A DNA stretch of 64,000 nucleotides from an uncultured Fidelibacterota bacterium (GTDB lineage: Bacteria > Fidelibacterota > Marinisomatia > Marinisomatales > UBA1611), in NCBI GenBank assembly GCA_902562835.1, contig CACEUX010000001.1:10568-74567 (forward strand). Direction: 5' to 3'. Shown one piece after another: positions 1,605 to 53,227 of this stretch. The position numbers were made by a program, and so were the translations under genes. The notes below the pieces were generated by a model. It made no database searches. It saw only the letters and a program-made list of their open reading frames with translations, and had not been told where the DNA came from. Position 1 is the stretch's first letter. Every line of letters starts with the position of its first letter.

Positions 1605-1633
1605 TTGACTTTAATGTCTCTTAGTCTTAATAT
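1605..1633 (+). promoter_or_regulatory. Sigma70-type promoter for the MORN-repeat gene
   Basis: TTGACT (1605-1610), 17-bp spacer, TAATAT (1628-1633). Confidence 0.55.
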
Positions 1634-1713
1634 TGGGAACAAAAGGTATCCGAGAGGGGGATAAATCATCCTCAAACCCTTTTTTTACATACTCAGATAA
1701 TGAGGATTTGACC

Positions 1714-4700
1714 ATGCGGAAAATACTGGTTAGTTCGTTCATTCTATCGTCAATGGCTCTTGCCCAGAACGATGGATTAGTAAAGACATATTACCCTAGT
1801 GGGGCACTCGAAACAGAAGGCAATTACACCAATGGTGTTCGGGATGGCCTCTGGACATTTTGGTATGAGGGTGAAGTATATGAAGACTATGGCGAAGATG
1901 GAGAACCCAACACGCAAGATGAAGGGGAAAACAATGGCCAATGGGACTCCACAGAGACTGTTATCCGCGACTTAGATGGTGATACCTTTTACGACCCCCC
2001 TGAAAAACAAATGGAAGGCTCTTACGCATTAGGAAATAGAGAGGGTCTATGGACAAACTGGTATATCAATGGTATGCGTAAAGAAGAATCAAATTATCTT
2101 TCTGGAAAACTCAATGGTACCATAATTCGATGGCATGAGAACGGCAACAAATCTGAAGAAGGCGTGTATGAAACTGGCAAGCAAAATGGGACCTGGGTCT
2201 GGTATTACGAAACCGGGATTAAAAAAGAGCAAACGCGATTCTTAGATGGACAACAAGACGGTTTATGGATCCAGTGGTTTAGCGATGGAGCAAAAAAATC
2301 AGAAAGAAAGTTTTCTAGTGGCGAGCGAGATAGTGTGTGGACTTCCTGGTTCGACAATGGAAACAAAAAATTTCAAGCTACTTATAAAAATGGAAAACTT
2401 AATGGTGAATGGACATCTTGGTATGAGGGTGGAATAGTTAAAGAAAAAAGTGGTGCCTACTTAAATAATAAGTTAGATAATAAGTGGACATACTGGGAGG
2501 ATGATGGAAGAAAAACAGAAGAAATAACATATAGTAATGGGATTAAAAACGGGTCATATGTATTTTGGAATTTTGATAATTATAAGACCCTTGCAGGGGA
2601 GTATTTAAATGGCGTAAAACATGGACTTTGGACACTATGGTATGATGATGGAATTATAAAAGCTGAGGAAAATTATGCCAATGGCGAAATGGATGGTCTG
2701 TGGAGCTGGTGGAGGCCTGACGGCGTAAAAGATAAAGAAGGCAACTATAAAAACGGTGTTAAACATGGATTGTGGATATCTTGGAGTACAGCTGACCGTA
2801 AAAAAGGAGAAGAAACTTATGTAAATGGAATTCTTGATGGCTTAGTAACTGTTTGGCATGAGAATGGAAATAAAGACCGAGAGGGAATAATCCGTGGTAA
2901 TGAACCAGAGGGAAGCTGGACATATTACTTCGCTGATGGAAAAGAAGATTTTAGATTTGATTATGGTTCTGGACTCGATCGAGTCCGTATTGCAGAATTA
3001 GAGGAGCGTGATGGTACTTTTTATAAGATAGGTAAACATAAACCCTATACTGGAATAGTTGTCGAATCAGGAGGTCTTAAAGATTATTTATTACTGGGTC
3101 GTTTTCAAGCAGGCCGGAGAGATGGACAATGGGTTCAATGGTATCGAAACGGACAAAAGGAAGTAGAAGGAATTTATTATAGAGGTAAAAAACATGGGGA
3201 TTGGACTCTCTGGTACGAGGATGGCACCCTTAAGGAAAAGGGGGCATTCGATATGGGTGTTGCTGATGGAAATTATCAATATTGGTACCCTAATGGTCAC
3301 CTACATATGGAGCAATCTTATAACAAAGGAGAACCACAAGGAAGATGGACCTGGTGGTTCGAGCACGACCACAACCTAAATTTCACAGATGGTACATGGT
3401 CCTATAATGGAGTAACATACAAAGCAGAAAATGATGAGGAACTATGGAACTGGTGGTGGTATCTCAATGACAATAAAGAAATGGAAGGGTATTATGTGGA
3501 TGGCCGAAAAAATGGCGTCTGGACCTGGTGGTTTGATACTGGCGTGAAACAATCAGAGGGCAACTACCTTGATGATGAGCAGAATGGCTTATGGGAATAT
3601 TTCGCACCTGATGGCTCGGTTGCAGAAGAAATAACTTTTTCAGGTGGTAAAAGAGATGGACGGTCTACCTTATGGCTTACACCTGAAGAAAAACAAGAAG
3701 AGAAATTTTATAAAAATGGAAAACTTGATGGGCCAAGTACATTTTGGGAAAATGGATATCGCAGTACTATGACAACTTATAAATCGAATACCCCAGAAGG
3801 GCCATGGGTTATTTGGTATTCAAATCTTGACCAAATCAAGGAACAGGGTTTCCATCAAAACGGGGTCAGAGAAGGCCTTACAACCTATTACTATGATGAT
3901 GGGAAAATGCAACGTGAAGGATTCTTCCAAGAAGGTCTTCCAGAGGGGGTTTGGACGTATTGGAATAAAGAGGGTGATAAAGATTTTGACTTTGATTTTG
4001 GGTCTGGATTAGAACATATCTCCTTAGAAGACCTAGTAGAAAGAGAGTCTATGTTTTATAAATTAGGCGAGGATAACCCCTTTACAGGAATTATTACCCA
4101 AGAAAACCCTGAGGCTGACTATCTGTTTTTAGGCAGAACCAAAGATGGTAAAAAAGATGGACAGTGGGTGAAGTGGTTTCCAAGTGGAAAAGATGTGCCT
4201 GAAATTATTTTAGTTGATGTGCCTAAGCCTGAGCCAACTATTCCGTGGAGTGGTGGCAAACAAGAGCAGGGTGGCTTCAAAGGCGGAGAGAAGCACGGAA
4301 AGTGGACCGAGTGGTATGACAATGAACACATTAAGTCTCATGGGACATATAACGAAGGCATCATGGACGGGGCCTGGACATTTTATCATCAAAATGGCGT
4401 GAAAGAAAAAGAGGGGTCGCTCATAAATGGAAATGCAGATGGTTTATGGATATTTTGGAATGATGAAGCAAATAAGGTACAAGAGGGTACTTTCTCTAAT
4501 GGTATAAAAGAGGGACAATGGACAGCCTGGTTTGAAGATGGTCGTCTTACAGAAGGATATTATGCTGGTGGTAAAAAAGATGCAACCTGGACAAGCTGGT
4601 GGGATTTTGATAGGGCAAGAAAAGAGATGCAAGGAGCATACAAAAAAGGTAAGATGGTTGATAAGTGGTTCTTTTATGATAAAAGCGGAAACCTTAAAGA

Positions 4701-4728
4701 GATAAGATACTTTTCTCCCGACTTCTAA
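1714..4728 (+). CDS. Large secreted MORN-variant repeat protein (YwqK-like family)
   Basis: Dozens of GxWxxWYxNGxKxxEGxYxxG repeats; ATG at 1714 after GAGGA gives signal peptide MRKILVSSFILSSMALA. Confidence 0.8.
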   Translation: MRKILVSSFILSSMALAQNDGLVKTYYPSGALETEGNYTNGVRDGLWTFWYEGEVYEDYGEDGEPNTQDEGENNGQWDSTETVIRDLDGDTFYDPPEKQMEGSYALGNREGLWTNWYINGMRKEESNYLSGKLNGTIIRWHENGNKSEEGVYETGKQNGTWVWYYETGIKKEQTRFLDGQQDGLWIQWFSDGAKKSERKFSSGERDSVWTSWFDNGNKKFQATYKNGKLNGEWTSWYEGGIVKEKSGAYLNNKLDNKWTYWEDDGRKTEEITYSNGIKNGSYVFWNFDNYKTLAGEYLNGVKHGLWTLWYDDGIIKAEENYANGEMDGLWSWWRPDGVKDKEGNYKNGVKHGLWISWSTADRKKGEETYVNGILDGLVTVWHENGNKDREGIIRGNEPEGSWTYYFADGKEDFRFDYGSGLDRVRIAELEERDGTFYKIGKHKPYTGIVVESGGLKDYLLLGRFQAGRRDGQWVQWYRNGQKEVEGIYYRGKKHGDWTLWYEDGTLKEKGAFDMGVADGNYQYWYPNGHLHMEQSYNKGEPQGRWTWWFEHDHNLNFTDGTWSYNGVTYKAENDEELWNWWWYLNDNKEMEGYYVDGRKNGVWTWWFDTGVKQSEGNYLDDEQNGLWEYFAPDGSVAEEITFSGGKRDGRSTLWLTPEEKQEEKFYKNGKLDGPSTFWENGYRSTMTTYKSNTPEGPWVIWYSNLDQIKEQGFHQNGVREGLTTYYYDDGKMQREGFFQEGLPEGVWTYWNKEGDKDFDFDFGSGLEHISLEDLVERESMFYKLGEDNPFTGIITQENPEADYLFLGRTKDGKKDGQWVKWFPSGKDVPEIILVDVPKPEPTIPWSGGKQEQGGFKGGEKHGKWTEWYDNEHIKSHGTYNEGIMDGAWTFYHQNGVKEKEGSLINGNADGLWIFWNDEANKVQEGTFSNGIKEGQWTAWFEDGRLTEGYYAGGKKDATWTSWWDFDRARKEMQGAYKKGKMVDKWFFYDKSGNLKEIRYFSPDF

Positions 4729-7555: not shown

Positions 7556-8491
7556 TTATTCTATCATTTCTCCACCAGAAAGAATATCCTCTAGGTTTAT
7601 AGCGCCGTCTTTTTCCATCTGTTTCACAGCATCAACAAATAATTTCCTGGCATTATCAACCTCTCTTTTTGGTTGAGGTTTTGAAGCTAAATCTTCATTA
7701 TACATTGCCTGTTTTTTCTGAGGAAGCATGTCTTTTAATTCATTTATCTTTTCTTCTTCCAAACCTTTAAAAGCAATTGGAAGGGTGTCTAGTTCAATTG
7801 AATTTAAAAGAGTTCGAACTTGATCTTCTGGGAATTTTTCCATGATATCTTCAAATGTAAGAAATAAGACCTTTACAGCAGCGTAAAGCTCAGGATCCTC
7901 ATTTTGAAGGGTCTGCATATATCTTTCTTGGTCATTTGATGACATATCACTCAACATATCGGCTATTTCTTTAGCACCGCCTCTTGAAAAGTCAGCAGTG
8001 CGTGGAAGATAGGTTGATTTTTCTTTTAATCTTGCTCCAACCTCTATAATTCCCTCAAGCGGAATATCATCCAAAGAGCCTAATTCAATTAGGACCTGAC
8101 CTTTTAATTCTGGTTCTAGTTTGTTTAACACGGTCATTTTTTTATCAGCTTCTAACTGAGCAAGTATCATGGCAATAACTGGAGGCTCTTCTTTATCAAG
8201 GAGAGCAAACATTTGCTCATCATTGAGATCTTCTAAAAAATCAAATGGCTGAATGGGACCATCTTCTTTCGTCTCATCCTGTTCTGCTAAGAACCCAAAA
8301 TAGAATTCTTCCATCACACGTTTTTTTACAAGAAAGGATACCGTCCCCATTGATCTTACTGTAGAGCGTATTTTTCTAACTTCTGTTTTAGACAAACCTT
8401 TAATTAATGACATTGCTAAACTTTCTCCAACAACAGAGAAAAGAATTGCAACTTTTTGAAGGCCTGAAAGCATATGATAATCGTTAATCAT
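7556..8491 (-). CDS. fliG: FliG-like rotor protein (divergent)
   Basis: LSGLQKVAIL N-terminus, PFDFL, EEPPVIAMIL (EHPQ position), GG linker, FLTFEDI (MFxFEDL position), torque-helix-like KKQAMYNEDL. Confidence 0.85.
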   Translation of the reverse strand: MINDYHMLSGLQKVAILFSVVGESLAMSLIKGLSKTEVRKIRSTVRSMGTVSFLVKKRVMEEFYFGFLAEQDETKEDGPIQPFDFLEDLNDEQMFALLDKEEPPVIAMILAQLEADKKMTVLNKLEPELKGQVLIELGSLDDIPLEGIIEVGARLKEKSTYLPRTADFSRGGAKEIADMLSDMSSNDQERYMQTLQNEDPELYAAVKVLFLTFEDIMEKFPEDQVRTLLNSIELDTLPIAFKGLEEEKINELKDMLPQKKQAMYNEDLASKPQPKREVDNARKLFVDAVKQMEKDGAINLEDILSGGEMIE

Positions 8492-8511
8492 GGTCTATTT
8501 CCTTAACTTTT

Positions 8512-10320
8512 TTATTCGCTACTTTCTTCTTCATCTCCGCCGCTATCGCCACCTGATGACTCTTCGGGTTCGGGAGAGGGCGCTTCAGGAGCGGGTTGCT
8601 CAAGCCACTCTTTAACAATAGTAGATGTCCTTGTAGGCTGGCCAACACTCATAGAAACGACAGATTTTCGTATATCATCTATTTCACTTTTTAAAACATT
8701 TGGATCATCTTCAAGCGAATGCTGCTCGCCATCATTTTCCTCTGATGATACGATATCTTCAGAAGTAGTTTCAGCAGCGACCTCTTCTTCTTTTACTTCT
8801 GGCTTCTCTGATGGCTCCTTTGGTTTTTGTTCCTCCTCTTTCTTTTCTTCCTTCTGCTCTTGTTGAGCAGCAGGTTTTTTCTTTTTTCTTCTCTTTCTGG
8901 GCCTAGGAGGAGGATAAGGAGGATAGGGCATTGGCGGATAGGCTTGCTGTGGCCCTGACCTACGTTGTAGAACCATCATTGCAATAAGCGCAGCTATCAC
9001 GGCACCAAATGCAAATAACATAATTGTCTTAGTATCCAATCCTGAAGAAGTTTCAGCTTCGAGAGCATCTAAGTCAGCTTGGACCGCATCTAGAGCTGCA
9101 ATTTTTTCTGCTATTAACGAGTCCCTTTCTGCTTTCTCTTTTTCACGTTCTTGTAGTTCTGCTTCTATCTGAGCCTGCGCTTGATTTTGCGCTTCTAGAG
9201 AATCCTGCAACATTGCTTGGAGTAACATCTTTCTTAGGCTTTGCAATTCATTATCAAGCATTGCAAATCGAGTGGAGTCTAATGCGGTTGCTTTTGCTTT
9301 TTCTGTAGACTGGTTTACTGCTAGCATATCTTTTAAGGCATTAATTTCTGATTCCAGTTTAGAATTTCTAATCGAGTCTTTCCTGGATAGTTCTCTTTTC
9401 TCATATTCAGCAGCTTCTTGTAAACGCTTTTTATCTAGTTCTTCAAGCTGGGTCTCTAAAAGGGCAAGGTCTTCTTCTCTTCGCACAGATATCTCTTCTT
9501 TATAATTTTCAATATCTTCTCTCCAGTTTGTGGATTCAGATGCTCTTTTTTGTTCTAGAAGATCTATCTTTTCAGCAATATTCTTTAGCATTATTTGTTC
9601 TGCCGATCTTTGGTCTCTGCGCTCTTTAAAACTCGCTGTCATGATTGTTAGCTTATCACCACGGTCTCTATCAAATTTTGAAGCGGCCATTGTGAGCTGT
9701 CTAATATTTTCTATTAATTCGGGTGCTGCCCCCTCTTGAAGTATCAGAGATAGCTCCATACGCTTCACAATTGCTCGAGAAGGTCGCTTTCTTGAGAGAA
9801 CCTTGTCTACAACATCTCTATCTTCTTCAGCAGAATCTTGTGATGGACTATCCATCGGGTCCATAGTTTTTGGAGAAATTGGATTGCTTTCAGTCAAGGG
9901 CCTTGAACTAGGTGTTTTTGGACGAACCACATCTACTTCAAAACCTGGAATAGGCAATCCAATAGAAAAACTTTCCTGCTCAGTTTGATTATCTTGAACC
10001 ATTTTATTTTGAATCTTTACAAGAGCCTCTGCTGTTCTTTCTGCTGGAGAACTTTCTACCGGTTGGCTACGACCTGATTCTCGTGGTGCAAAAACTGTTA
10101 TCTGCTCATTAACCTCATCAAGGATCTCCAAGTCAACATCTACATTGATCACATACTTGTGAGAGTCGATTACTTTTGAAAGAGCCTCTTTAACTCGATC
10201 TCTGATATCATTTTCGACCATTAGTTTTTGAGAGAGATATCCGCTCGCCTGCGCAGAAAGCAAGGCTACACCAATAACCACTCCAATAATGGCTTTAATA
10301 TGTTTTTTACCCTTGTTCAT
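8512..10320 (-). CDS. FliF-like ring protein (RBM3/C-terminal part only) with long coiled coil, TM helix and FliG-binding-like tail
   Basis: ENDIRDRVKEALSKV...VINVDVDL, IVKRMELSLIL, IRQLTMAASKFDRDRGDKLTIMTASF, then a TM helix and PTRTSTIVKEWL; adjacent to fliG. Confidence 0.7.
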   Translation of the reverse strand: MNKGKKHIKAIIGVVIGVALLSAQASGYLSQKLMVENDIRDRVKEALSKVIDSHKYVINVDVDLEILDEVNEQITVFAPRESGRSQPVESSPAERTAEALVKIQNKMVQDNQTEQESFSIGLPIPGFEVDVVRPKTPSSRPLTESNPISPKTMDPMDSPSQDSAEEDRDVVDKVLSRKRPSRAIVKRMELSLILQEGAAPELIENIRQLTMAASKFDRDRGDKLTIMTASFKERRDQRSAEQIMLKNIAEKIDLLEQKRASESTNWREDIENYKEEISVRREEDLALLETQLEELDKKRLQEAAEYEKRELSRKDSIRNSKLESEINALKDMLAVNQSTEKAKATALDSTRFAMLDNELQSLRKMLLQAMLQDSLEAQNQAQAQIEAELQEREKEKAERDSLIAEKIAALDAVQADLDALEAETSSGLDTKTIMLFAFGAVIAALIAMMVLQRRSGPQQAYPPMPYPPYPPPRPRKRRKKKKPAAQQEQKEEKKEEEQKPKEPSEKPEVKEEEVAAETTSEDIVSSEENDGEQHSLEDDPNVLKSEIDDIRKSVVSMSVGQPTRTSTIVKEWLEQPAPEAPSPEPEESSGGDSGGDEEESSE

Positions 10321-10364
10321 GTGAAACTCCTTGGTATGTGTTTACACTCCGCATTGTAAAGTCT

Positions 10365-11309
10365 TTAATCATCCATATAACTTGTGGCAGAACGATCTCT
10401 AAGTTCCGCATCCTTAGCCGCCTTGCCTTTTAGGCCTTTCTTTTTACCATGGTGTGGTGGATTAATAAATGTAATCTGAATTCTTCTATTTGCTGATTTT
10501 TGCTTTTTTGTAGAGTTTAATGATAAAACTGTTGGCATAATTGTTTCATTACCTTGCTTGTCTACCCTAACTATTGGATCTTCCCATGTCAATGTTAACG
10601 GATTATACATCGGGTTTGCTTTTTTTACACTATCAATGCCCCTTGGATACCAATCGCCATATCCTGCCGCTAAAAGCCTTGGAGCTGGAACACCTTTTTC
10701 AATCATATACCTTACCACGGTTGCACCACGAGCCGCAGAAAGCTCCCAGTTACTCTTGTAGAATTTTTGCCATTTTTTTGGCATTGGGTCACTATCGGAG
10801 TGCCCAGCTACTTCAACCTGAAATGGGCTGGCTTGAATCCTTGGAATAATTTCTGTATCTAATAATTCTTCAAGCTCTTTCTTCATATCTGCCTTCCCAG
10901 ATGGAAAAGCAAAATCTCCTTTGATATTCACGATGAGACCCTTTGCACTAGTTTCAATATCAATAGGCGGGTCTCCAGCGGGATTTTCTTTTTTCATTTC
11001 TTCGATGGCTTCTTTCATCTCTTTTTTCATAGCTGCAAGATTTTTTATTGGCTCAAACTCTCCTTCTTCTTCTGCTTTCCCCTGAGCCTTTATTTTACTA
11101 CCTAATGATTTCCCCTGTGAGTTTGCCATCTCCTGCAGTTTTACAGGATCCATAGTAGATATAGCCGCTAGAAGCACAAAAAAAGCAAAGAGAAGCGTCA
11201 TCATATCAGCGAAAGTTCCAAACCATCCTGGAAGTCCTTCTTCAACAGAATTTACTCCTTCTTCAAAGCCTTTATTCCAGGCCTTCTTTTCTCCAGCTGT
11301 CATTCCCAT
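10365..11309 (-). CDS. motB: MotB/PomB-type stator subunit with OmpA-like peptidoglycan-binding domain
   Basis: WFGTFADMMTLLFAFFVLL TM with the conserved Asp; VAGHSD, SNWELSAARGATV, GYG, NRRIQI. Confidence 0.9.
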   Translation of the reverse strand: MGMTAGEKKAWNKGFEEGVNSVEEGLPGWFGTFADMMTLLFAFFVLLAAISTMDPVKLQEMANSQGKSLGSKIKAQGKAEEEGEFEPIKNLAAMKKEMKEAIEEMKKENPAGDPPIDIETSAKGLIVNIKGDFAFPSGKADMKKELEELLDTEIIPRIQASPFQVEVAGHSDSDPMPKKWQKFYKSNWELSAARGATVVRYMIEKGVPAPRLLAAGYGDWYPRGIDSVKKANPMYNPLTLTWEDPIVRVDKQGNETIMPTVLSLNSTKKQKSANRRIQITFINPPHHGKKKGLKGKAAKDAELRDRSATSYMDD

Positions 11310-11314
11310 TTAGA

Positions 11315-12100
11315 CTAATCTCGTTTCCACTCCGCAGGTGGGATAAAAGAATTTAGTTTTTCTCGTACAATAATTGGATGTTTTTTCTGGTGAATGAGAC
11401 GTGCTGCTTCCACAAGTAAGTTTGCAGACATGGAGGTCTGTGTGGTTTTATTTCCCATCTTTTGGGCCATAGGTAAGAAGAATAGGTTTGCAGCAACAGC
11501 ACCATAAAGAGTAGTTATCAACGCTGCAGCCATACCACCACCAAGGTTATCAGCACCACCCTCTCCGCCAAATCCAGCCAACATAAGGACAAGACCAATA
11601 AGGGTCCCAACCATACCCCAAGCAGGAGAGAGATCACCCATCGCTTTTAGCATATCTGTTTGAACCTTCTCACGCTTTTCGCGATATTCAATTCTTGTTT
11701 CCAAAATATCTGTTACTTCATCTAAAGAGTACCCATCTACTACCATTTGTACCCCATCTTTAAAGAAATAGGTTTTTATTGTATCAACAGATTTTTCCAA
11801 ATCAGCTGGCCCTTTTCTTGCATACTCAGCAACATCACAAGCCTCATCTACCAATGGACCCATTTTATCATCTGCTGGTTTCAGTACAGCACCAATCGCC
11901 TTACCAAGCGCAGCTACATGATACATAGGAAAAGCTACCATGACTGAAGCTATCATTCCTCCGATTACAATGCCAAAACTTGGGATAGAAACAAAATTTC
12001 CAAAGCCACCTGCTGCACCCTCAACAAATAACGCATAGGCAATACTGCCTATCATAAAGACCATTCCTAAAACAACACCTATAATGAGAGCAATATCCAT
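11315..12100 (-). CDS. motA: MotA/PomA-type stator subunit
   Basis: PSFGIVIGG, ARKGPADLE, GVQMVVDG, PAWGMVGTLIGLVLML, ALITTLYGA. Confidence 0.9.
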   Translation of the reverse strand: MDIALIIGVVLGMVFMIGSIAYALFVEGAAGGFGNFVSIPSFGIVIGGMIASVMVAFPMYHVAALGKAIGAVLKPADDKMGPLVDEACDVAEYARKGPADLEKSVDTIKTYFFKDGVQMVVDGYSLDEVTDILETRIEYREKREKVQTDMLKAMGDLSPAWGMVGTLIGLVLMLAGFGGEGGADNLGGGMAAALITTLYGAVAANLFFLPMAQKMGNKTTQTSMSANLLVEAARLIHQKKHPIIVREKLNSFIPPAEWKRD

Positions 12101-12104
12101 AAGG

Positions 12105-13520
12105 TCACTCCTCCATAATGCTTGTAGATTTTAATTTATTTTCGTTCAGAGCTTTCAGAATATTACGAACATCTGTATACTCTGGATCGAGGCGCAACGC
12201 CAGATTCCAGTTTATAGTAGCTCTCTGTACATCTCCTAATTTATAGTAGATTGACCCTCTTCTGGCATATGCTAATGCTAAATCAGGATTTAATTCTAAG
12301 GCGAGGTCTACCTCTTTTAAGGCCTCTCTATAGTCCCCAGCATAGAAGAACCTTAATGATCGAGATAAGAATCTCATCGCTTCATTCATGTTTTTTTCAG
12401 AAACATTAGTTTCCAATTTAAGGGATGTTAATGAATCAGATAAAAACTTACTATTTTGTTCCATTGCATTAAGACGAACAAGTAGGTTCCTCATTTCATT
12501 ATTCATTAGGGCCATAGAATCCCTAAGTGTTGATACTGCTACATTTGCCATAGCAACAGTGGAATCTCTATGTATTGGTATGCTATCATCAAATCTTTTA
12601 TTAATACCACCACTAGGCCCATATATATTGGTAGGACTAGAAGGTCCACTTTGAACTCGCTGCCTAGGGTCTCTAGGTACAGCCATATCAAGTCCCAAGG
12701 TAAAGCCTGGATGGCCAGACCAATAGCGATTGCCCCATTCTGGTAATTTTTCCATGTGGGTGAACCCTAGGTTCAGGCGGTAATCCGAGGTAAGGGGGAT
12801 GCGGAGTCCCACATTGACACCTGTCCCGTCGAATTCACCCACAATATCCATTCCACCCCGCCTTGCAAAGTACGGGGTTTTCATTAAAAAGCCTACAAAT
12901 ACGCCCGCATTATTTTCAGTGGAGTCAGTAATGACAGCTCCATTAGCATCTAATAATGCTGGAAGAGTATCTGCAGCAACTGGTGCTAATCCACCAGTTC
13001 CAAAACCAAAATATGTATCAAACTTATACTCGCCCAAGTCTTTTTGACTTGATAATACAACAAAGGCAGAAAGAAGAGAGGTGTTCAAGCTAAGCATTTC
13101 TTCTGAGGTCTGTTCGCTTTGGAAAACCACATCTTGAAGACCGACTGAAACAGAGATATCATTATACTTATAAACTCGCTGTTGAAAATGAAAACCAAAT
13201 TCAGCAGGAGCGTCATACTGAGACTCTTCTAGGTTACTTAACCTTGTTGTGTCTCCAGGTATAACAGCGGAAAAACCAGCACTAAACCCTTTACCAACCT
13301 CCATTTCAAAGAACGCACCTTTTGCAGTATTAAAAGGATTAAGGTTGTGATATTCAACCGATACTCCTGTTCTAAATAGATATGGGGTCTTTTTATTGCT
13401 TGATGTAGGAATGCGCATCATCAATCCTGGGCGTGTATATGCAACTCGGGTTCCTCCTATTAATAAACAAGAAAGAACCAGGGCTGAAATAATAGCAATG
13501 TGTCTGCGATTAAAATCCAT
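12105..13520 (-). CDS. Putative outer-membrane beta-barrel (YjbH-like) + coiled coil + C-terminal TPR protein
   Basis: Signal peptide, GLMMRIPT start, alternating aromatic/hydrophobic strands, heptad region, TPRs (ALELNPDLALAYARRG, ALRLDPEY). Confidence 0.55.
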   Translation of the reverse strand: MDFNRRHIAIISALVLSCLLIGGTRVAYTRPGLMMRIPTSSNKKTPYLFRTGVSVEYHNLNPFNTAKGAFFEMEVGKGFSAGFSAVIPGDTTRLSNLEESQYDAPAEFGFHFQQRVYKYNDISVSVGLQDVVFQSEQTSEEMLSLNTSLLSAFVVLSSQKDLGEYKFDTYFGFGTGGLAPVAADTLPALLDANGAVITDSTENNAGVFVGFLMKTPYFARRGGMDIVGEFDGTGVNVGLRIPLTSDYRLNLGFTHMEKLPEWGNRYWSGHPGFTLGLDMAVPRDPRQRVQSGPSSPTNIYGPSGGINKRFDDSIPIHRDSTVAMANVAVSTLRDSMALMNNEMRNLLVRLNAMEQNSKFLSDSLTSLKLETNVSEKNMNEAMRFLSRSLRFFYAGDYREALKEVDLALELNPDLALAYARRGSIYYKLGDVQRATINWNLALRLDPEYTDVRNILKALNENKLKSTSIMEE

Positions 13521-13562
13521 TAAGCGATATATAATTTTATTTTCATCTACATTAGAGAGGTA

Positions 13563-14735
13563 TTATTGATATTCTTCCCAATCTATTACATAAGAATATC
13601 CAATGAACGCTCCAAAATCCTGGGGAACATAAAGATCAAATTTACCTACGGCTCCAGGAAGAAGGCTCGCATCTGAAACAATCCCTGTGTCAAAAGTGTT
13701 ATATGAACCCTTAACAAAAGTGGTCAGAGTTTTTGTTTCACCACTCCAGTTCTTCCTAAAAACAAAGTCTACTTTTACAAAATCTGCTCTACGTCCACCT
13801 ATGTTTTTAATTTCACCATCAAATATTATGTTTCCCTGCCCATCCTTTTTTTCTGAAATATTACCAACCAAGACACAATTGCCAGAAAATTTTGCGCTAG
13901 CATTGCTTGCAGAGTTATTTGAAGATGTATATCGTGGTTGTGCTAGCTTAGGCATCGGTGGCGGAGTATAGCTTTCGCGTATCTGCTCTGGTACATACTC
14001 TTGCGTGTCTTCTGTAATGACATTATCGACAATTCGCACAACCTGCGCCCTATCGACAATTAAATATCCAACCAGGGTCTCTACTTTGAGCGATTTATCA
14101 TCCTGGTAAATAATCTTACCAAAAACAGTACTACCGTTTTTTAGAATTATTTCTTTTGAATAAATAGTAAGAGGGTTAACCCACATCTTACTTAAAGCCT
14201 TTAAATCATCCATTTCCTGAGAAAGGTGTTTGAATTCTGCAGAAAGCTTTTTTATTTCAAAGTTTAGCTCATTCAGAATGAAATCCTTACTTGGACTCCC
14301 CATTGCCTCCATGGTTTGTGGAACCGTCACTGAGATGCGCTCTGGCTGTCCGCTTGGCGCTGCCTTAACCTGAGATTCCGCAACTGGGGCACTAGGTTTT
14401 TTAGTTGAGAGCGCTATGTCTCCTATGTTTTCTTTTCCAGTTAGTGTGACAATTTTTTCTGCTGATCCCAAATTATCATGTGATGCCTGCAGCACATAAT
14501 CACCCTCTTCTAACTTTTTGAATTTAAACTTCCCATTGCCGCCCGTTTTTTCTTCATCAACAACTTCGCCCCCTGAAAGCAATGTGACTATGGCCTTTTT
14601 AACCTTCTTGCCATCTGAATCAACTATCCTTCCTGATAGGGTGAGTTTTCCTTTAGCATATAGAGTGGACCCTATAAGCGTAAGGACGACTGTAGCGAGC
14701 AGTGCTCGCTTTTGTAGGCTATTAATTAGTGTCAT
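13563..14735 (-). CDS. Secreted protein: carboxypeptidase-regulatory-like Ig domain + coiled coil + small beta-barrel + FxLYD-like domain
   Basis: SGRIVDSDGKKVKKAIVTL...TGGNGKFKFKKLEEGDYVL; IILKNGSTVFGKI; GEIKNIGG...LLPGAVGKF; GAGGT RBS. Confidence 0.55.
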   Translation of the reverse strand: MTLINSLQKRALLATVVLTLIGSTLYAKGKLTLSGRIVDSDGKKVKKAIVTLLSGGEVVDEEKTGGNGKFKFKKLEEGDYVLQASHDNLGSAEKIVTLTGKENIGDIALSTKKPSAPVAESQVKAAPSGQPERISVTVPQTMEAMGSPSKDFILNELNFEIKKLSAEFKHLSQEMDDLKALSKMWVNPLTIYSKEIILKNGSTVFGKIIYQDDKSLKVETLVGYLIVDRAQVVRIVDNVITEDTQEYVPEQIRESYTPPPMPKLAQPRYTSSNNSASNASAKFSGNCVLVGNISEKKDGQGNIIFDGEIKNIGGRRADFVKVDFVFRKNWSGETKTLTTFVKGSYNTFDTGIVSDASLLPGAVGKFDLYVPQDFGAFIGYSYVIDWEEYQ

Positions 14736-14789: not shown

Positions 14790-14818
14790 ATTTTAATGCA
14801 AAATGGGCAATGTGTCAA
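14790..14818 (-). promoter_or_regulatory. Sigma70-type promoter of the motor-like operon
   Basis: On the minus strand TTGACA (14818-14813), 17 bp, TAAAAT (14795-14790). Confidence 0.65.
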
Positions 14819-24954: not shown

Positions 24955-26634
24955 TTATTTGTTTAATAATAGTTTTTTTGTTATACTATTATCGCCAGAG
25001 ACCAACTGATAAAAGTATATACCACTTGCAGCCGGCTTGTTGTTATTATTAACCCCTCTCCATGTTGCCCGATATGAGCCTGGTGTTCTTGTGCCATTAT
25101 AAACCGTGTATATTTCATTACCCAAGATATCATAAATTTTCAAAGACACATCATTCGTATGATAGATGGTATAATCAAACTTTGTATCTGGATTAAATGG
25201 GTTTGGATAATTCTGACCAATGGTAAATACTAGAGGTAATTGAAGCTCAGTATTATCATTGGTCAATAAGCCATCATTTTCTATCATGAATAAGTGTGGT
25301 TTGTCCGCCGCAAAACTTGCTGACGAAAAAATGATGTCCCCAAGCCCATCATTATCAACATCACCAGTAAATAGCTTTGCAACTCTTACTTTACCCTGGT
25401 CATTGCCTGGGGTATAGTTATCTGTTGTGTCATCCATAAAGATTGCTCGCTCTGTATAGCTTGCTGCTGTTAATGGGTCCCCGCCGTTAAACTCCCAATC
25501 GTATACCGCTTCGTCATAGTGTGCGGCCAGGTAAAGATTTGGGCTACCGTCTCCATCTGCATCGCCAATATTTATTTGTCTTAGACCACCGGTATAGCTC
25601 TTAAAAAAATTAAAATTAGCATACGATAAGTTGCTAACATCATCTATCCCTTCAACAACAAATAATGAACCAGGCGTTATTAAGTCTCCTGTCAGTGAAT
25701 TCACACCAGATGTTGCACAGAATAATTCATTGGTTCCATTATTATCTATGTCCGCAACGACTATTCCCTGATTTGCTCTTTGGTATTGTTCTGAACAAAC
25801 ATAAAAGTCTGTTTGGTATTCATAGGTGTCTTCTCCGCTGTTTTCATGAATGATGAGATGAAAATAATTATAACCAACGGTGTAAATCTCTTTTAACCCA
25901 TCATTGTCAAGGTCTCCCGTTGAAATATTATACCCACTCCAATTGCTCCATGCGTTATCTTCATATTCAATGTGAAATATTGCAGAATCATTGATAATTG
26001 TATCTAATTCAAATATCATTAAACGGCTACTACCACCCGTACCTAACTCGGCCCATGGGCCATCCATTATAGAAACGATTATTTCTTGTTGTGGGTCACC
26101 ATCAAGCTCGTCTACATATATTTGTGCGGCCTCCCAAACACTATCTAGCCCCATATCCCAAGTATAGGTTGGTGTGGATAAAAAGGACATTGAATCTGTG
26201 TTCCATTCAAATATCTGTAAACCTTTTTGTCCGGGCGCCCCTGGGCTTGTGTCCACCAGTGATAAAATCTCATGATTTTGATCTCCGTCAATGTCTCCAA
26301 CAGCAACGCTTGAATAAGCATCATAAGTGCAACTTAGATCATAAAAGGTATACACCCATTGTAGCTCAATGGAATCGTTGCTTGTTGCTTCGTAATGGTA
26401 AACCCCATTGCAAAACTCCCCTGCGTATGAGCTCGAGACAACAAAGTCCCCAAAACCATCTCCATCAAAATCGTAAGGACCAATCATATTCCAAGGAGGA
26501 CCAGCAGGAATCAAACCACCAGAACCCCAAGGCTCATTGTTCCACTTAAGTGAAAATGAGCTATCGATTTCTGTTGCAGGTAGTTGAATAAACGCGAAAA
26601 AACAAACACTAAAAAACAAAGCCTTTGATCTCAT
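24955..26634 (-). CDS. Secreted FG-GAP/VCBS repeat protein with C-terminal T9SS-type-A/FlgD-Ig-like domain
   Basis: Repeated GDxDGDG motifs; QNYPNPFNP...KIYDILG...WRG...ASGIYFYQL...KKLLLNK. Confidence 0.78.
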   Translation of the reverse strand: MRSKALFFSVCFFAFIQLPATEIDSSFSLKWNNEPWGSGGLIPAGPPWNMIGPYDFDGDGFGDFVVSSSYAGEFCNGVYHYEATSNDSIELQWVYTFYDLSCTYDAYSSVAVGDIDGDQNHEILSLVDTSPGAPGQKGLQIFEWNTDSMSFLSTPTYTWDMGLDSVWEAAQIYVDELDGDPQQEIIVSIMDGPWAELGTGGSSRLMIFELDTIINDSAIFHIEYEDNAWSNWSGYNISTGDLDNDGLKEIYTVGYNYFHLIIHENSGEDTYEYQTDFYVCSEQYQRANQGIVVADIDNNGTNELFCATSGVNSLTGDLITPGSLFVVEGIDDVSNLSYANFNFFKSYTGGLRQINIGDADGDGSPNLYLAAHYDEAVYDWEFNGGDPLTAASYTERAIFMDDTTDNYTPGNDQGKVRVAKLFTGDVDNDGLGDIIFSSASFAADKPHLFMIENDGLLTNDNTELQLPLVFTIGQNYPNPFNPDTKFDYTIYHTNDVSLKIYDILGNEIYTVYNGTRTPGSYRATWRGVNNNNKPAASGIYFYQLVSGDNSITKKLLLNK

Positions 26635-26703
26635 TTTTTGACCTCTAATAAGTTTCAATTCTTGAAGATGTTGATAGTATATTCAAATAGAAGTTAGAGC
26701 TCA

Positions 26704-28137
26704 ATGAAAAATTTATCCATTATATCATACTTATTTTTATTTTTACATAGTGCAGTATTTTTATTCTCCCAAAATCCCTTCTTAGAGATAAGACCATTTG
26801 CCCTTCCAAGCTTTGAACAGTATCCCGCATCACAGTACGTAGACCATCACCATCCATACTCTAACCAAACTGACAATTTGTTCTTGAGGTTTGATGGAAG
26901 AGAATTTAGTGATGATGTTATTTACCCAAGTTGTTTATCTGGCTCTTCATGCTACGATGGTCATGCGGGGGTTGATTATTTTATGCCGTATGGAACACCT
27001 CTTTTAGCCCCGGCTAGTGGCTATGTTTTGTGGGCATCTTTTTCTGAGGCTGCAGATCCCTGCCCTGGGGGAATTACTCCAAACGGTGAACAGGGTACGA
27101 TAATCATAGCACATGGGAATGATTATTTTACAGTTTATCTACATATGAGCCCTCCTCTGAATGTTGCTGTGGGACAGAACGTAGAAACGGGAGACACATT
27201 AGGTTTTGCCGGAAATAGTGGATGCGCTATCAACACACACTTACATTTTGAAATTAGAAAAGGAAATTGGTTTTTTGATACAGTCGAACCATACGCTGTC
27301 GACCCCTTTGGCTGGTGGCATACCAGCTTTGACCCCATCGAGAATTTCCGCGGTAACAGAAGTGAGTGGCTCTGGGTATCCAACGACCTAATAGATGATG
27401 GGGACAATGGTTTTCAAAGATTTCAGGGTCCCGACTGGAGCTATTTGAACACCGGTTTCAACAATGATTCGTGGTCCGCACCTACCGCAAACAACATGGA
27501 AGAGAGTAGGCACTATGCTATCTGGGTTCCTTTTTTGGAGGACTCTGGAGAACACAATATTGATATATATATCCCTGAAGGCATTGAGGTTTCAACAGAA
27601 GCTATTTATGAGATAAGGATAAAAAGCTCATATGGTACAAGCACAAAAACAGATATAGTTGTTGACCAAAGCCTAAACCAGGGGAGTTTCCAAACAATAT
27701 CAACCCTGAGTCTACCTGCTGGTTCACAATCTAGCATTGTACTTCGAGACGTTGTTGGCGAATCATCAGAGGGGTCACGTGTGGTTTTTGACGCGATTCG
27801 ATTTTCTCCAAACTTTACCACATCTACGCTCGAAGAGCCTAATAGCGGAGCCCAAAAAGGTAATGCGCTTGTTAAATCAGTTTTCCCCAACCCCTTTAAC
27901 TCTATAGCTATAATTAATTATGAAACCACCATTGGAGGAAACATCATAATTAACATAGTAGATGCCCTTGGACGCAGAGTTTACAATGAACAAATATTTT
28001 ATAGCAAACCTGGAAAACATTCCTTTATTTGGAACGGTAAAACTGAATTTGGTAAAGAACTACCATCTGGGGTTTATTTAATTTCTTTTAGATCGAATGA
28101 GGCATTCTCAGCGGAAAAAGTATTATACCTAAAATAG
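26704..28137 (+). CDS. M23 family metallopeptidase with C-terminal T9SS-type-A/FlgD-Ig-like domain
   Basis: HAGVD, YLHM, HLHFE zinc motifs; FPNPFN...WNG...LPSGVYLI...KVLYLK. Confidence 0.8.
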   Translation: MKNLSIISYLFLFLHSAVFLFSQNPFLEIRPFALPSFEQYPASQYVDHHHPYSNQTDNLFLRFDGREFSDDVIYPSCLSGSSCYDGHAGVDYFMPYGTPLLAPASGYVLWASFSEAADPCPGGITPNGEQGTIIIAHGNDYFTVYLHMSPPLNVAVGQNVETGDTLGFAGNSGCAINTHLHFEIRKGNWFFDTVEPYAVDPFGWWHTSFDPIENFRGNRSEWLWVSNDLIDDGDNGFQRFQGPDWSYLNTGFNNDSWSAPTANNMEESRHYAIWVPFLEDSGEHNIDIYIPEGIEVSTEAIYEIRIKSSYGTSTKTDIVVDQSLNQGSFQTISTLSLPAGSQSSIVLRDVVGESSEGSRVVFDAIRFSPNFTTSTLEEPNSGAQKGNALVKSVFPNPFNSIAIINYETTIGGNIIINIVDALGRRVYNEQIFYSKPGKHSFIWNGKTEFGKELPSGVYLISFRSNEAFSAEKVLYLK

Positions 28138-49663: not shown

Positions 49664-49670
49664 TTAAAAG

Positions 49671-49690
49671 TTATCCACATGTTATCCACA
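49671..49690. promoter_or_regulatory. Two tandem perfect DnaA boxes upstream of dnaA
   Basis: TTATCCACA at 49671-49679 and 49682-49690. Confidence 0.88.
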
Positions 49691-49841
49691 CACTAAATCT
49701 GTCATAAATTACAAAAATGGGGGCCATTTAGTAAACAATATTTTAGACCCGCTGTGGTTTTTTAATCACTTATTGATTGATTAAATTTTTTGTGATGGGG
49801 CCATTGCGTTTGTAATTTTGACGTCAATACTTTAACTCATA

Positions 49842-49976
49842 ATGAAAAGAACATATCAACCCAGTAAAAGAAAAAGACGAAACAAGCATGGCTTCAGGTC
49901 TCGAAGGTCTTCTGTTGGTGGGCGATCAGTACTTCGAAGAAGAAGAAAGAAGGGGCGAAAACGCCTAGCCCTCTAA
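49842..49976 (+). CDS. rpmH: 50S ribosomal protein L34 (not in the ORF track)
   Basis: Manual translation [44 protein letters not shown]; divergent from dnaA. Confidence 0.95.
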
Positions 49977-49982
49977 AACCTC

Positions 49983-50222: not shown

Positions 50223-50224
50223 GC

Positions 50225-51883: not shown

Positions 51884-51890
51884 TTACAAA

Positions 51891-53213: not shown

Positions 53214-53227
53214 TTTCACGTGAAACA
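53212..53227. other. parS centromere-like site
   Basis: AGTTTCACGTGAAACA, 15/16 match to the consensus TGTTTCACGTGAAACA. Confidence 0.85.

Follow-up and report, generated by a model that had tools for sequence, protein, structure and literature searches.

A cluster on the minus strand of the window (the whole 64,000-nucleotide stretch of DNA that was analysed) encodes, in this order, a lipoprotein-type protein, a TPR protein, and MotA-like, MotB-like, FliF-like and FliG-like proteins (Table 1). The FliF-like gene, which is our main subject, sits between the MotB-like and FliG-like genes. The same gene order was found at all 15 loci compared across Marinimicrobia/Fidelibacterota, i.e., 14 fetched loci and the window, and the reading frames of the cluster are intact in all 15. 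A promoter-like site upstream of the cluster is a weak hint of a promoter; the 24 matches to the consensus are no excess over shuffled sequences (21.4, sd 4.4). We found no description of this cluster in the openly accessible articles that we searched.

Table 1 Features of the FliF-like protein and of the surrounding cluster
Feature	Coordinates	Strand	Basis or remarks
FliF-like rotor-ring protein gene	8512..10320	minus	ATG start, 602 aa; main subject of this analysis
Signal-peptide-like N-terminus, residues 1-27	10240..10320	minus	Read from sequence
RBM3 domain, residues 28-233, interrupted by a poorly conserved insert	9622..10239	minus	Pfam, hhalign and PDB matches
RBM3 insert, residues 81-180	9781..10080	minus	Bears the invariant Pro-Gly of LPIPGF
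Charged, Pro/Gly-poor spacer, presumed helical, residues 234-431	9028..9621	minus	Composition
Transmembrane (TM) helix, residues 432-451, then a cytoplasmic-side Arg/Lys cluster	8968..9027	minus	Sequence
Cytoplasmic Pro/Lys/Glu-rich linker, residues 452-537	8710..8967	minus	Sequence
Conserved C-terminal tail, residues 538-573, like the FliG-binding end of FliF	8602..8709	minus	Motif, weak profile matches
FliG-like rotor protein, 311 aa	7556..8491	minus	N, M and C domains; adjoins the FliF-like gene downstream
MotB-like stator subunit, 314 aa	10365..11309	minus	Plug, TM Asp35, OmpA-like peptidoglycan-binding domain
MotA-like stator subunit, 261 aa	11315..12100	minus	PF01618, E = 2.1e-26
Exported TPR protein, 471 aa	12105..13520	minus	Signal peptide, ~260-aa beta-rich N-domain, helical segment, highly conserved C-terminal TPR
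Exported partner protein, 390 aa	13563..14735	minus	Signal peptide, CarboxypepD_reg, coiled segment, two conserved beta-rich domains
Promoter-like site that agrees with the consensus at 11 of its 12 positions	14790..14818	minus	Close upstream of the first cluster gene; best of 24 matches
TPR lipoprotein-like ORF, 213 aa	14866..15507	minus	Pfam TPR; adjoins the cluster in 4 of 15 loci only

The initial annotation described the FliF-like protein as a signal-like N-terminus that leads directly into the RBM3 pattern of FliF, and our results agree with this description. We regard the N-terminus as signal-like because a Lys-rich start is followed by a 14-residue hydrophobic run (residues 10-23). A hydrophobic window at or above the threshold of 1.6 is present at the N-terminus in nine of 14 FliF-like orthologues, with values of 1.64-2.43; on the same scale, the C-terminal TM helix of the 14 orthologues scores 2.33-3.75. 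FliF has two flanking TM helices, of which the C-terminal one is clear here (residues 432-451), while the N-terminal run has only 14 residues and resembles a signal peptide. The "Q-rule" was considered as an argument for signal-peptide cleavage before a conserved Gln, and was dropped because, according to PMC5837995, the rule does not apply to the entire FCB group.

Several comparisons identify the region that follows the N-terminus. PF08345 (YscJ_FliF_C) matches residues 47-231 with an E-value of 7.6e-6 (26.9 bits, where the Pfam cut-off is 23.8). This match spans the complete profile (positions 1-147 of 147), and the model gives 31.1 bits for the locus in a six-frame search of the genome. 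In a profile of the family built from 44 sequences, residues 31-232 pair with residues 227-393 of the canonical FliF of the same phylum (hhalign 89.5%, E = 1.9e-6). When the PDB was searched with this profile, six FliF sequence entries were matched in their RBM3 region (E = 5.8e-6 to 7.6e-4), and the remaining 27 matches, at E-values of up to 1, fall in the helical or TM part of the profile. SpoIIIAG and SctJ chains in the PDB were not matched at E ≤ 1, and no NCBIfam family matches the FliF-like protein at E ≤ 0.01. The homology with RBM3 is thus present but modest.

RBM1 and RBM2 are missing, as the initial annotation had stated. PF01514, which represents RBM1-RBM2, has no match in the FliF-like protein or anywhere in the genome that contains the window, whereas it scores 178-201 bits on the canonical FliF of five relatives. 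Thus, of the two Pfam models that the initial annotation proposed to compare, YscJ_FliF_C exceeds its cut-off and YscJ_FliF finds no match. Only 27 residues lie upstream of RBM3. The sequence therefore supports a relative of FliF that has RBM3 only, with no room for RBM1 or RBM2. All 44 aligned members of the family share this architecture.

About 200 charged helical residues, a TM helix and a Pro/Lys-rich linker had been expected after RBM3, and all of these parts could be located. From F231 to the TM helix, the spacer comprises 201 residues, of which 40% are charged and one is Pro or Gly. The linker (83 residues) contains 14 Pro, 12 Lys and 17 Glu. However, the suggestion that the spacer forms a periplasmic coiled coil found no support in our tests, which are crude: for both periodicity and heptad windows, the spacer is no better than shuffled sequences. 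For a periodicity of 3.5 residues, the median z-score is -0.45, with z > 2 in one of 44 family spacers, and 0% of 28-residue heptad windows exceed the 95% level of shuffles. The density of i,i+4 salt bridges is 0.079, versus 0.075 in shuffles.

Nor is the length of the spacer constant: the 44 family members have a median of 165.5 aa and a range of 44-208 aa, with the minimum in one lineage. The family can therefore do without a long shaft of fixed length. Neither this range nor the negative heptad tests support the proposal that the spacer is a stalk or drive shaft that raises the RBM3 ring toward the outer membrane.

A C-terminal tail of the form P-x-x-x-x-x-IVKEWL was also part of the initial annotation, and is present. 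The tail terminates in P562-x5-IVKEWL, and the motif is kept across the FliF-like family. When an HMM of the tail was compared with 5,458 sequences, its top two non-self matches were the C-termini of canonical FliF proteins, although both matches, which lie at the expected position, are weak (E = 0.028 and 0.23). HMMER also aligned a stretch of the family profile weakly with the C-terminus of Vibrio FliF. These similarities weakly suggest that a FliF-like C-terminal tail has been retained.

Constraint on the protein was measured against its relative L004, for which synonymous differences are saturated (pS ~0.74). The proportion of nonsynonymous differences, pN, is 0.016 in RBM3a, 0.032 in RBM3b and 0.057 in the tail, and rises to 0.135 in the spacer and 0.208 in the RBM3 insert. 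The linker (0.331) is the least constrained part. The RBM3 domain and the tail are under strong purifying selection (pN of 0.016-0.057 versus pS of ~0.74).

The neighbouring MotA-like protein has full-length matches to flagellar MotA/PomA proteins of solved structure (E = 3.8e-34 to 6.6e-15), but no match to ExbB/TolQ among solved structures at E ≤ 1e-3. Its residues R95 and E102 are located in the cytoplasmic loop. The MotB-like protein matches PF13677 (55.2 bits) and PF00691 (44.5 bits), and its Asp35 lies within the TM segment. By these matches and residues, the features of a flagellar stator are present, namely a four-TM channel subunit that has a cytoplasmic torque interface and the charged R/E pair, the plug, the TM Asp and the peptidoglycan-binding domain. 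Both proteins score under all NCBIfam equivalog cut-offs, e.g., 174.9 versus 394 for MotP, 152.5 versus 341 for PomA and 123.3 versus 259 for the MotB family.

All three domains of the FliG-like protein exceed their cut-offs (PF14842 with 52.4 bits, PF14841 with 44.3 bits and PF01706 with 71.9 bits). The alignment with the canonical FliG of the phylum covers 306 columns (hhalign 99.9%, E = 8.9e-34) at 24% identity; in a further comparison, identities to canonical FliG of the phylum are 22-24%. TIGR00207 gives 102.5 bits versus a cut-off of 226.7. The FliM-binding motif in the middle domain of FliG is EHPQR. At this site, the window's protein has E-E-P-P, compared with E-H-P-Q in canonical FliG, and the canonical His-Pro-Gln is absent in all 14 FliG-like orthologues. 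A Lys or Arg is found at the column equivalent to R281 in 14 of 14 orthologues, and acidic residues occur a few positions downstream of this column (E266 and D267 in the window's protein). With the roles of torque residues in FliG and the stator as given in PMC12505986, the charged torque helix that faces MotA has been kept.

In a quick, incompletely searched tree with 58 rows, the FliG-like proteins group as a single clade that falls outside canonical FliG of the phylum and has a stem of 3.65 substitutions per site. This tree placed the clade next to the FliG proteins of Ignavibacteriota/Zixibacteria (SH-aLRT 92). We do not trust this placement because of the length of the stem and because a misextracted row (L220, branch length 10) was included.

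The first two genes of the cluster encode exported proteins. The sole Pfam match of the 390-aa partner is CarboxypepD_reg, at residues 32-103, and its conserved part corresponds to no Pfam or PDB family. Orthologues in most of the phylum are lipoproteins of 306-339 aa that do not have the CarboxypepD_reg domain, and a Cys lipobox occurs in 10 of the 14 orthologues in their alignment (A5). This lipoprotein-type partner is present at 15 of 15 loci. With alignment A5 as the query, relatives were found in 241 species genomes.

The TPR protein, whose orthologues were aligned separately (alignment A4), has its Pfam TPR match at residues 389-459. Its N-domain is possibly an outer-membrane barrel, which we treat as a lead only. 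The ESM Atlas feature neighbours of a homologue with 93% identity are outer-membrane barrel families, at values of 0.80-0.82 that are under the 0.9 level. A crude test for beta strands in the N-domain was not significant: it has four amphipathic 9-mers versus 1.7 (sd 1.2) in shuffled sequences, and 33 of 500 shuffles reach four.

Additional TPR genes occur around these core genes. At 13 of 15 loci, the cluster also contains CpoB/YbgF-like genes, which encode an N-terminal coil and TPR_6; the window's own cluster has no such gene. The 213-aa TPR lipoprotein-like ORF is possibly an accessory outside the core. We saw no TolA, TolB or TonB homologue in the cluster.

When the cluster is divided into 30 bins, marine metatranscriptome contigs from four studies cover 27, 15, 21 and 16 of them, and single RNA-library contigs span the junctions between the FliG-like and FliF-like genes and between the MotA-like and TPR genes. 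These contigs are a hint of expression; such libraries may contain DNA, and contigs cannot show transcription. Some parts of the cluster are not covered, e.g., positions 10436-10915 in three of the four runs, and we conclude nothing from these gaps.

The FliF-like gene occurs in 129 of 201 sampled genomes of the phylum. Given that the other 72 genomes do not have it, its function is dispensable. It is found in 98 of the 153 genomes in which FlhA is missing and in 31 of the 48 that have FlhA. The N-domain of the TPR protein is present in 132 of the 201 genomes and, according to a comparison of the two lists by hand, 127 genomes have both this domain and the FliF-like gene, and 67 have neither. 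The genome that contains the window is 77.7% complete; within it, FlhA, Flg_bb_rod, Flagellin_N, FliMN_C and PF01514 were not found, and there is one FliG_C and one FliF_C. Six sampled genomes of the same taxonomic family, which are 92-97% complete, all have the FliF-like gene, and FlhA was found in none of them.

Flagellated relatives carry the cluster in addition to a complete, distinct set of flagellar genes. All five of the flagellated genomes that were checked encode, besides the proteins of the cluster, a canonical FliF (PF01514 and PF08345), a canonical FliG and a MotA at the flagellar locus. In one complete genome, G134, the cluster is ~0.52 Mb away from the flagellar locus. Because the cluster occurs without FlhA and also alongside separate canonical FliF, FliG and MotA proteins, it is a divergent paralogous rotor-stator module and not a flagellar remnant. 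The decisive context of the FliF-like gene, which the initial annotation had missed, is this flagella-independent cluster, in which a dedicated MotA/MotB/FliG set is combined with three conserved exported partners.

GldM was found in none of the 201 genomes of the phylum, and equivalogs of GldL, GldN and GldK were each found in none of 81. The positive controls for GldM initially gave 0 of 5 genomes, and then exceeded the cut-off in 9 of 41 Bacteroidota. Divergent PorM-like proteins may occur in the phylum. The type IX translocon protein SprA is above its cut-off in 197 of the 201 genomes. Since the cluster is missing from 72 of these genomes while SprA is so widespread, type IX secretion cannot generally depend on the cluster.

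The cluster has much in common with the flagellar motor core. Shared features are RBM3, a tail with weak similarity to that of FliF, a three-domain FliG, adjacent FliF-like and FliG-like genes, a flagellar-type MotA with its R...E loop, and a MotB with the plug, TM Asp and OmpA-like anchor. By contrast, RBM1 and RBM2 are absent here, a signal-like N-terminus seems to take the place of TM1, and 44-208 aa of spacer separate RBM3 from the TM helix. Moreover, the export apparatus, rod, hook, filament and FliM/FliN were not found in the window's own genome, the FliM-binding motif is not retained in the FliG-like protein, and the partners are exported in a Sec-type manner and belong to no known family. 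In Salmonella, the export complex is held by the RBM2 ring, as described in PMC11739650, and published work puts the FliF ring at ~34 subunits.

In its inventory of parts, the injectisome is the mirror image of the cluster. It retained the export apparatus and an RBM1/2-type ring and lost torque generation by FliG and MotAB, whereas the cluster retains the torque parts and RBM3 without an export apparatus. The injectisome, too, is a machine that arose from a portion of the flagellum, and it has an RBM ring protein. In spirochaetes, an orphan second FliG paralogue (FliG1) has diverged, and its gene lies apart from the flagellar operon; it serves a flagellated cell and is not known to have dedicated FliF-like or MotAB-like partners. 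SpoIIIAG-type proteins have one membrane anchor and a single RBM with an insertion, and form a large ring. SpoIIIAG and SctJ are not known to have a FliG-binding tail or a stator, and they are not matched by the family profile at E ≤ 1.

Two kinds of non-flagellar motor can also be compared. The GldLM/PorLM motor resembles the cluster in having a part that crosses the periplasm, as well as lipoprotein and TPR partners, but the driven element in the cluster would be a ring of the FliG/FliF type. No homology between the two systems is known outside the MotA/ExbB superfamily. In Tol-Pal and ExbBD-TonB, stator-family motors energise a periplasm-spanning protein, according to PMC12505986. The cluster shares with these systems the CpoB/YbgF-like TPR genes (13 of 15 clusters) and the OmpA-like anchor, but differs in its flagellar-type stator and its FliG-like and RBM3 ring proteins.

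We consider it probable that the cluster encodes a flagellum-independent ring of FliG-like and FliF-like proteins that is driven by MotAB and has a periplasmic output. We infer the formation of the ring, the contact between the FliF-like and FliG-like proteins, and rotation from homology. The FliF-like ORF would be the membrane ring protein of a rotor-stator machine whose parts are deep paralogues of core flagellar motor proteins. Its RBM3 domains would build a periplasmic ring, and its C-terminal tails would hold a FliG-like ring beneath the inner membrane. The OmpA-like domain would presumably fix the MotA-like/MotB-like units to peptidoglycan; powered by H+ or Na+, these units would push against the charged helix at the C-terminus of the FliG-like protein, thereby turning the ring.

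Because FliM/FliN are absent and the FliM-binding motif of the FliG-like protein is degenerate, this motor would not have a CheY-controlled switch. The spacer could transmit the movement to the RBM3 ring, which may act with or against the exported partners, i.e., the TPR protein, with its possible barrel, and the lipoprotein-type protein. In most relatives, the CpoB/YbgF-like TPR proteins might be further partners of the ring. The output of the motor may be to move or to secrete surface proteins, or to maintain the envelope. A more far-reaching version of this explanation is an autonomous rotary nanomachine, assembled by way of Sec instead of type III export, with a FliF(RBM3)-FliG ring and its own MotAB stators, whose periplasmic portion would power some process at the outer membrane. 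Such a machine would put the FliG-MotA torque interface to its first non-flagellar use and might replace a GldLM-type motor, which was not found in this almost universally SprA-positive phylum. This version is doubtful in our view.

Some of the same observations would suit a trans-envelope force transducer that does not rotate and resembles the Tol-Pal/TonB systems, with a role in envelope integrity or division. In such a device, the MotA/MotB-like unit would energise the FliF-like protein, which would be a TolA-like arm across the periplasm with reversed topology, and the FliG-like protein would be an adaptor. Compatible with this idea are the CpoB/YbgF-like genes inside the cluster at 13 of 15 loci, the OmpA-like peptidoglycan anchor and the length, charge and Pro/Gly-poor composition of a spacer that shows no heptad regularity; the possible outer-membrane barrel of the TPR protein would fit as well, as a lead only. 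Nevertheless, we find it unlikely. Flagellar MotA/PomA are the only proteins of solved structure that the stator matches, ExbB/TolQ being absent at E ≤ 1e-3, the FliG-like protein has retained three domains and a charged C-terminal helix, and no role of FliG other than that of a rotor part is known. Moreover, the ring-building RBM3 domain is strongly constrained, and the window's own cluster has no CpoB-like gene.

That all four core proteins are homologues of flagellar proteins, and that 31 of 48 FlhA-positive genomes have the FliF-like gene, might instead reflect a flagellar accessory or leftover. The cluster would then specify a second rotor/stator ring or a scaffold at the flagellar base, and would be decaying or idle in non-flagellated genomes such as this one. 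However, the FliF-like gene is also present in 98 of 153 FlhA-negative genomes, and purifying selection is strong in a lineage with FlhA in none of six sampled family members. Gene order and reading frames are intact at 15 of 15 loci, the cluster of G134 is ~0.52 Mb from the flagellar locus, and the cluster MotA is distinct from the flagellar-locus MotA in five of five genomes. The single clade of FliG-like proteins outside canonical FliG in the quick tree, with its stem of 3.65 substitutions per site, further argues against an accessory or leftover, which we judge to be very unlikely. Even less credible is a static ring in a secretion or channel complex, comparable to SctJ or SpoIIIAG, whose linkage to the MotAB/FliG-like genes would have some other reason. 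RBM domains do form rings in secretion and sporulation channels, cf. PMC4768692. Yet, among solved RBM proteins, the family profile matches FliF only, export-apparatus genes were found neither in the cluster nor in the window's own, 77.7% complete genome, and the FliF-like gene is linked to homologues of FliG, MotA and MotB without exception (15 of 15 loci).

The data point to an undescribed ion-driven envelope motor in this phylum, in organisms with or without flagella. If the MotAB-driven ring that we favour is real, the half of the flagellar motor that produces torque (stator, FliG and RBM3 ring) is able to exist, and to last over long times, without the secretion half, which would have a direct bearing on the modular assembly of the flagellum in evolution. 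It would also represent a new output among the few known ion-driven rotary machines. Given that the system consists of six to eight genes and is Sec-dependent, its reconstitution and imaging should be easier than those of the flagellum. The carriers are Marinimicrobia/SAR406, which are abundant in the ocean, and an envelope motor in these organisms would be an ecological question too.

The FliF-like gene is a single ORF with an ATG start that encodes 602 amino acids, and all of the elements that the initial annotation named in it are present, at the positions in the table. Its sole Pfam match, PF08345 (YscJ_FliF_C), covers the whole profile and scores 26.9 bits against a curated cut-off of 23.8 (E 7.6e-6) in the protein, and 31.1 bits in a six-frame search of the genome. 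In a profile of 44 family members, residues 31-232 align with residues 227-393 of the canonical FliF of flagellated relatives within the phylum (hhalign 89.5%, E 1.9e-6). Searched against all PDB chains, this profile matches six FliF sequence entries (E 5.8e-6 to 7.6e-4), every time in the RBM3 region, and the family's invariant Pro-Gly (in LPIPGF) is aligned with the Pro-Gly of Vibrio FliF. No SctJ- or SpoIIIAG-type chains are among its 33 matches up to E 1. The claim that RBM1 and RBM2 are missing also held. Only 27 residues precede RBM3, which leaves no room for them, and PF01514, which covers both domains and scores 178-201 bits on the canonical FliF of five relatives, was found neither in the protein nor in the whole genome.

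Genes of the cluster (positions within the window) and parts of the FliF-like protein (residues)
Feature	Position	Strand	Description
Exported protein	13563-14735	minus	390 aa
Exported TPR protein	12105-13520	minus	471 aa
MotA-like	11315-12100	minus	
MotB-like	10365-11309	minus	plug and OmpA-like domain
FliF-like	8512-10320	minus	
FliG-like	7556-8491	minus	three domains
N-terminus of FliF-like	residues 1-27		Lys-rich start and 14-residue hydrophobic run
RBM3	residues 28-233		matches C-terminal family of FliF
Spacer	residues 234-431		charged, nearly without Pro/Gly
TM helix	residues 432-451		strong; Arg/Lys cluster next
Linker	residues 452-537		rich in Pro/Lys/Glu
Tail	residues 538-573		conserved, P-x5-IVKEWL at its end
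Protein end	after residue 573		acidic

A signal-like start together with the positively charged cluster behind the TM helix implies a predicted N-out, C-in topology. The tail appears to resemble canonical FliF weakly: the best non-self matches of its HMM among 5,458 sequences are two of five canonical FliF proteins (E 0.028 and 0.23), in both cases at the very C-terminus. The stretch from RBM3 to the TM helix is 201 residues long and contains a single Pro/Gly, and 40% of it is charged, a composition that makes a helical structure likely; as one straight helix they would span ~30 nm by simple arithmetic (0.15 nm per residue). The coiled coil proposed for this spacer found no support in crude tests: 3.5-residue periodicity in 44 family spacers has a median z of -0.45 and exceeds 2 in only one, no 28-residue heptad window rises over the 95% shuffle level, and i,i+4 salt bridges are not in excess. 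Spacer length ranges from 44 to 208 aa in the family (median 165.5), and given that a 44-aa form exists, a long reach is no fixed requirement.

Purifying selection acts on the gene, most strongly on RBM3 and the tail. Compared with L004, the locus of a relative, non-synonymous differences are 0.016 and 0.032 in RBM3a and RBM3b and 0.057 in the tail, against 0.135 in the spacer, 0.208 in the insert and 0.331 in the linker; synonymous differences are about 0.74 and saturated. A word-indexed search found 1,858 relatives at E<=1e-3, and among the 120 matches listed, 118 have PF08345 as their only precomputed Pfam domain and two have none. An exhaustive search of 1.84 billion representatives returned only 199 relatives at the same threshold. 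The taxon names attached to family members are all Marinimicrobia, Neomarinimicrobiota or Fidelibacterota, and the proteins are called "hypothetical protein", "FliF C-terminal domain-containing protein" or "FliF/YscJ" in their sources.

The six cluster genes, separated by gaps of 4-44 nt, occur in identical order in all 14 loci examined, which were drawn from seven families of the window's own order and class and from another five in the phylum, and ORF clustering of these loci with the window recovers six families in 15/15. A seventh, CpoB/YbgF-like family (signal or lipobox, coil, TPR_6) contributes one or two genes in 13/15 loci and is missing from the window. These genes lie inside the cluster at loci L030 and L032-L043, and none occurs at L031 or in the window (13520-13563). 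Their nearest relative in the window's genome is at C10:23757-24575 (contig C10), where the neighbors resemble rodA, PBP2, mreD and mreC, judged by N-termini and lengths only. The best promoter-like match is directly upstream of the first cluster gene, although such matches are not enriched overall.

The product of this first gene is a lipoprotein with a Cys lipobox and without CarboxypepD_reg in 10/14 aligned orthologues, and neither Pfam nor the PDB has a family for its conserved part. The window and three other orthologues of its order (4/14) have a signal peptide and a CarboxypepD_reg (transthyretin-like) domain instead of the lipobox, a change in how the protein is anchored. A paralogue with 27.5% identity lies at G000:C3:24550-25674 in the same genome (G000), adjoining another lipoprotein-like ORF. 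In the TPR protein, the N-domain is conserved and beta-rich. Language-model neighbors of a stored, 93%-identical homologue are outer-membrane barrel families at only 0.80-0.82, and a strand test on the N-domain was not significant; an outer-membrane barrel is a lead. Two loci carry unexpected taxon labels that look like binning errors: L086, a 3,362-nt contig of a "Gammaproteobacteria" MAG with a 65%-identical homologue of the first cluster gene, and L179, on a "Caldisericaceae" MAG contig, whose FliG groups with a Caldithrix sequence.

The torque-generating parts are recognizable in the remaining proteins. Solved flagellar MotA/PomA match the MotA-like protein over its full length (E 3.8e-34), and no other solved structure matches it at E<=1e-3; its R95 and E102 are kept in the loop aligning with the charged pair of MotA. 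The MotB-like protein combines a plug and an OmpA-like domain with Asp35 in the TM helix. The FliG-like protein aligns with canonical FliG over 306 columns (99.9%); the column of E. coli R281 is Lys or Arg in 14/14 orthologues, with acidic residues a few positions on. The roles of these FliG residues are those stated in PMC12505986 and PMC7564593. The FliM-binding His-Pro-Gln is kept in 0/14 orthologues, and FliM/N was not found in the genome, which is 77.7% complete. No NCBIfam equivalog cut-off is reached; the best-scoring stator models, below cut-off, are MotP and PomA, which are of the Na+ type and hint at Na+ as the putative coupling ion. The genome also has a stand-alone pair of MotA-like (280 aa) and MotB-like (244 aa) genes, with roughly 30% identity to those of the cluster (G000:C14:34606-36192). 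It sits between an ORF for a 275-aa membrane protein and a small ORF adjoining an enolase-like gene, with no FliG or FliF relatives nearby.

The FliF-like gene is present in 129 genomes of a 201-genome phylum sample and the TPR N-domain in 132 (both in 127, FliF-like alone in 2, N-domain alone in 5, neither in 67), as compiled by hand from lists and in related genomes that are not independent. Both are missing from the same families, with presence in, for example, 0/13, 5/33 and 1/9 genomes of f3, f24 and f28, which implies several separate losses. One of the five genomes with an uncoupled N-domain, G030, is flagellated and 100% complete; it has an N-domain relative (487-aa frame, E 7.6e-19) and no FliF-like match with the query used.

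The cluster is independent of flagella. FlhA exceeds its cut-off in 48/201 genomes, and the FliF-like gene occurs in 31/48 FlhA-positive and 98/153 FlhA-negative ones, a tally likewise made by hand. In the window's genome (1.84 Mb in 97 contigs, 77.7% complete), FliG_C and FliF_C occur once each, whereas FlhA, the N-domain of flagellin, rod proteins, the C-domain of FliM/N and PF01514 have no match; in six other genomes of its family (92-97% complete), FlhA is found in 0/6 and the FliF-like gene in 6/6. Five flagellated genomes each have a canonical FliF (533-552 aa, both Pfam families), and a second, PF08345-only gene at a separate locus was found in 4/5 by Pfam and 5/5 by protein query. Each also has two FliG genes (canonical 137-144 bits, cluster copy 61-97 bits), and their flagellar-locus MotA is 32-37% identical to that of the window, versus 47-63% for the cluster MotA. 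The FliG-like protein shares 22-24% identity with the phylum's canonical FliG and 39-53% with its own orthologues. Canonical FliG sequences from Fidelibacterota, Calditrichota, Rhodothermota, Ignavibacteriota and Zixibacteria share 46-69% identity. A quick tree unites the 14 FliG-like proteins in a single clade (SH-aLRT 100), whose stem measures 3.65 substitutions per site and has an unreliable attachment point. Together, these comparisons indicate that the cluster is an old, divergent paralogous set.

We consider it probable that the cluster encodes a rotor-stator machine independent of the flagellum. Domain make-up, topology, fixed gene order, independence from flagellar genes and selection pattern are supported directly, and the mechanism is modeled on homologous flagellar parts. 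The RBM3 domains would form a ring, and the tails of the FliF-like protein would recruit a ring of FliG-like protein, which peptidoglycan-anchored stators would turn. The motor would lack a switch complex, the spacer would couple its membrane part to the RBM3 ring, and this ring may interact with the exported partners.

The main rival, a non-rotary transducer like Tol or TonB, is unlikely. The separate canonical copies, the divergence and the FlhA-negative carriers argue against a remnant of the lineage's flagellum, and a flagellar accessory or relic is very improbable. Least credible of all is a static ring of the secretion type.

A role in type IX secretion was also considered. Proteins with type IX-like C-terminal sorting domains are encoded at 24955-26658 and 26704-28137 of the window. 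The type IX translocon SprA exceeds its cut-off in 197/201 phylum genomes, and PorV-like barrels occur in 81/81, every one below the equivalog cut-off. GldL, GldN, GldK and the first domain of GldM were each over cut-off in 0/81 genomes. GldM was found in 0/201, with a model that gave 0/5 in a first control set and 9/41 Bacteroidota over cut-off in a second, and that probably misses divergent PorM. Either the type IX motor is very divergent here or secretion is powered by something else. It is possible but unlikely that the cluster supplies the missing motor, since 72/201 genomes lack the cluster, including 13/13 of one family in which all have SprA.

Marine metatranscriptome contigs at 92% identity or more cover 27, 15, 21 and 16 of 30 bins of 7556-14735 in four studies. 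Gene junctions are also spanned by single contigs, FliG/FliF-like in two runs and MotA/TPR as well. This is a weak hint of expression, because DNA may be present in such libraries and contigs are no proof of transcription.

Elsewhere in the window, at 48326-55070, dnaA on the minus strand has yidC, mnmE and mnmG on the plus strand close by, which places the window in the vicinity of the replication origin. The cumulative GC skew is highest near 8 kb and lowest near 27 kb. No tRNA genes or Rfam families at gathering score were found in the 64 kb. A 1,031-aa MORN_2-repeat protein (1633-4728, E 2e-42) adjoins pyruvate phosphate dikinase, and a 671-aa GAF-PAS-adenylate/guanylate cyclase lies at the far end (61475-63490).

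Judging from the homologous parts, the cluster descends from the flagellar rotor-stator core and would work like it. In contrast to FliF proper, the FliF-like protein lacks RBM1/2 and matches no NCBIfam model, and unlike the flagellum as a system, the 77.7% complete genome has no export apparatus or axial parts. The injectisome kept export and lost torque; the cluster is its mirror image. With GldLM and Tol-Pal it shares only the general plan of a motor in the inner membrane whose partners lie in the periplasm and outer membrane. We found no published description of the cluster in the openly available full-text literature. In passages of PMC12505986, on MotAB evolution, the phylum is not mentioned and FliG comes up once, in connection with residue contacts between canonical stator and rotor. 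Should rotation and an output other than the flagellum be demonstrated, the cluster would deserve the rank of a new kind of machine.
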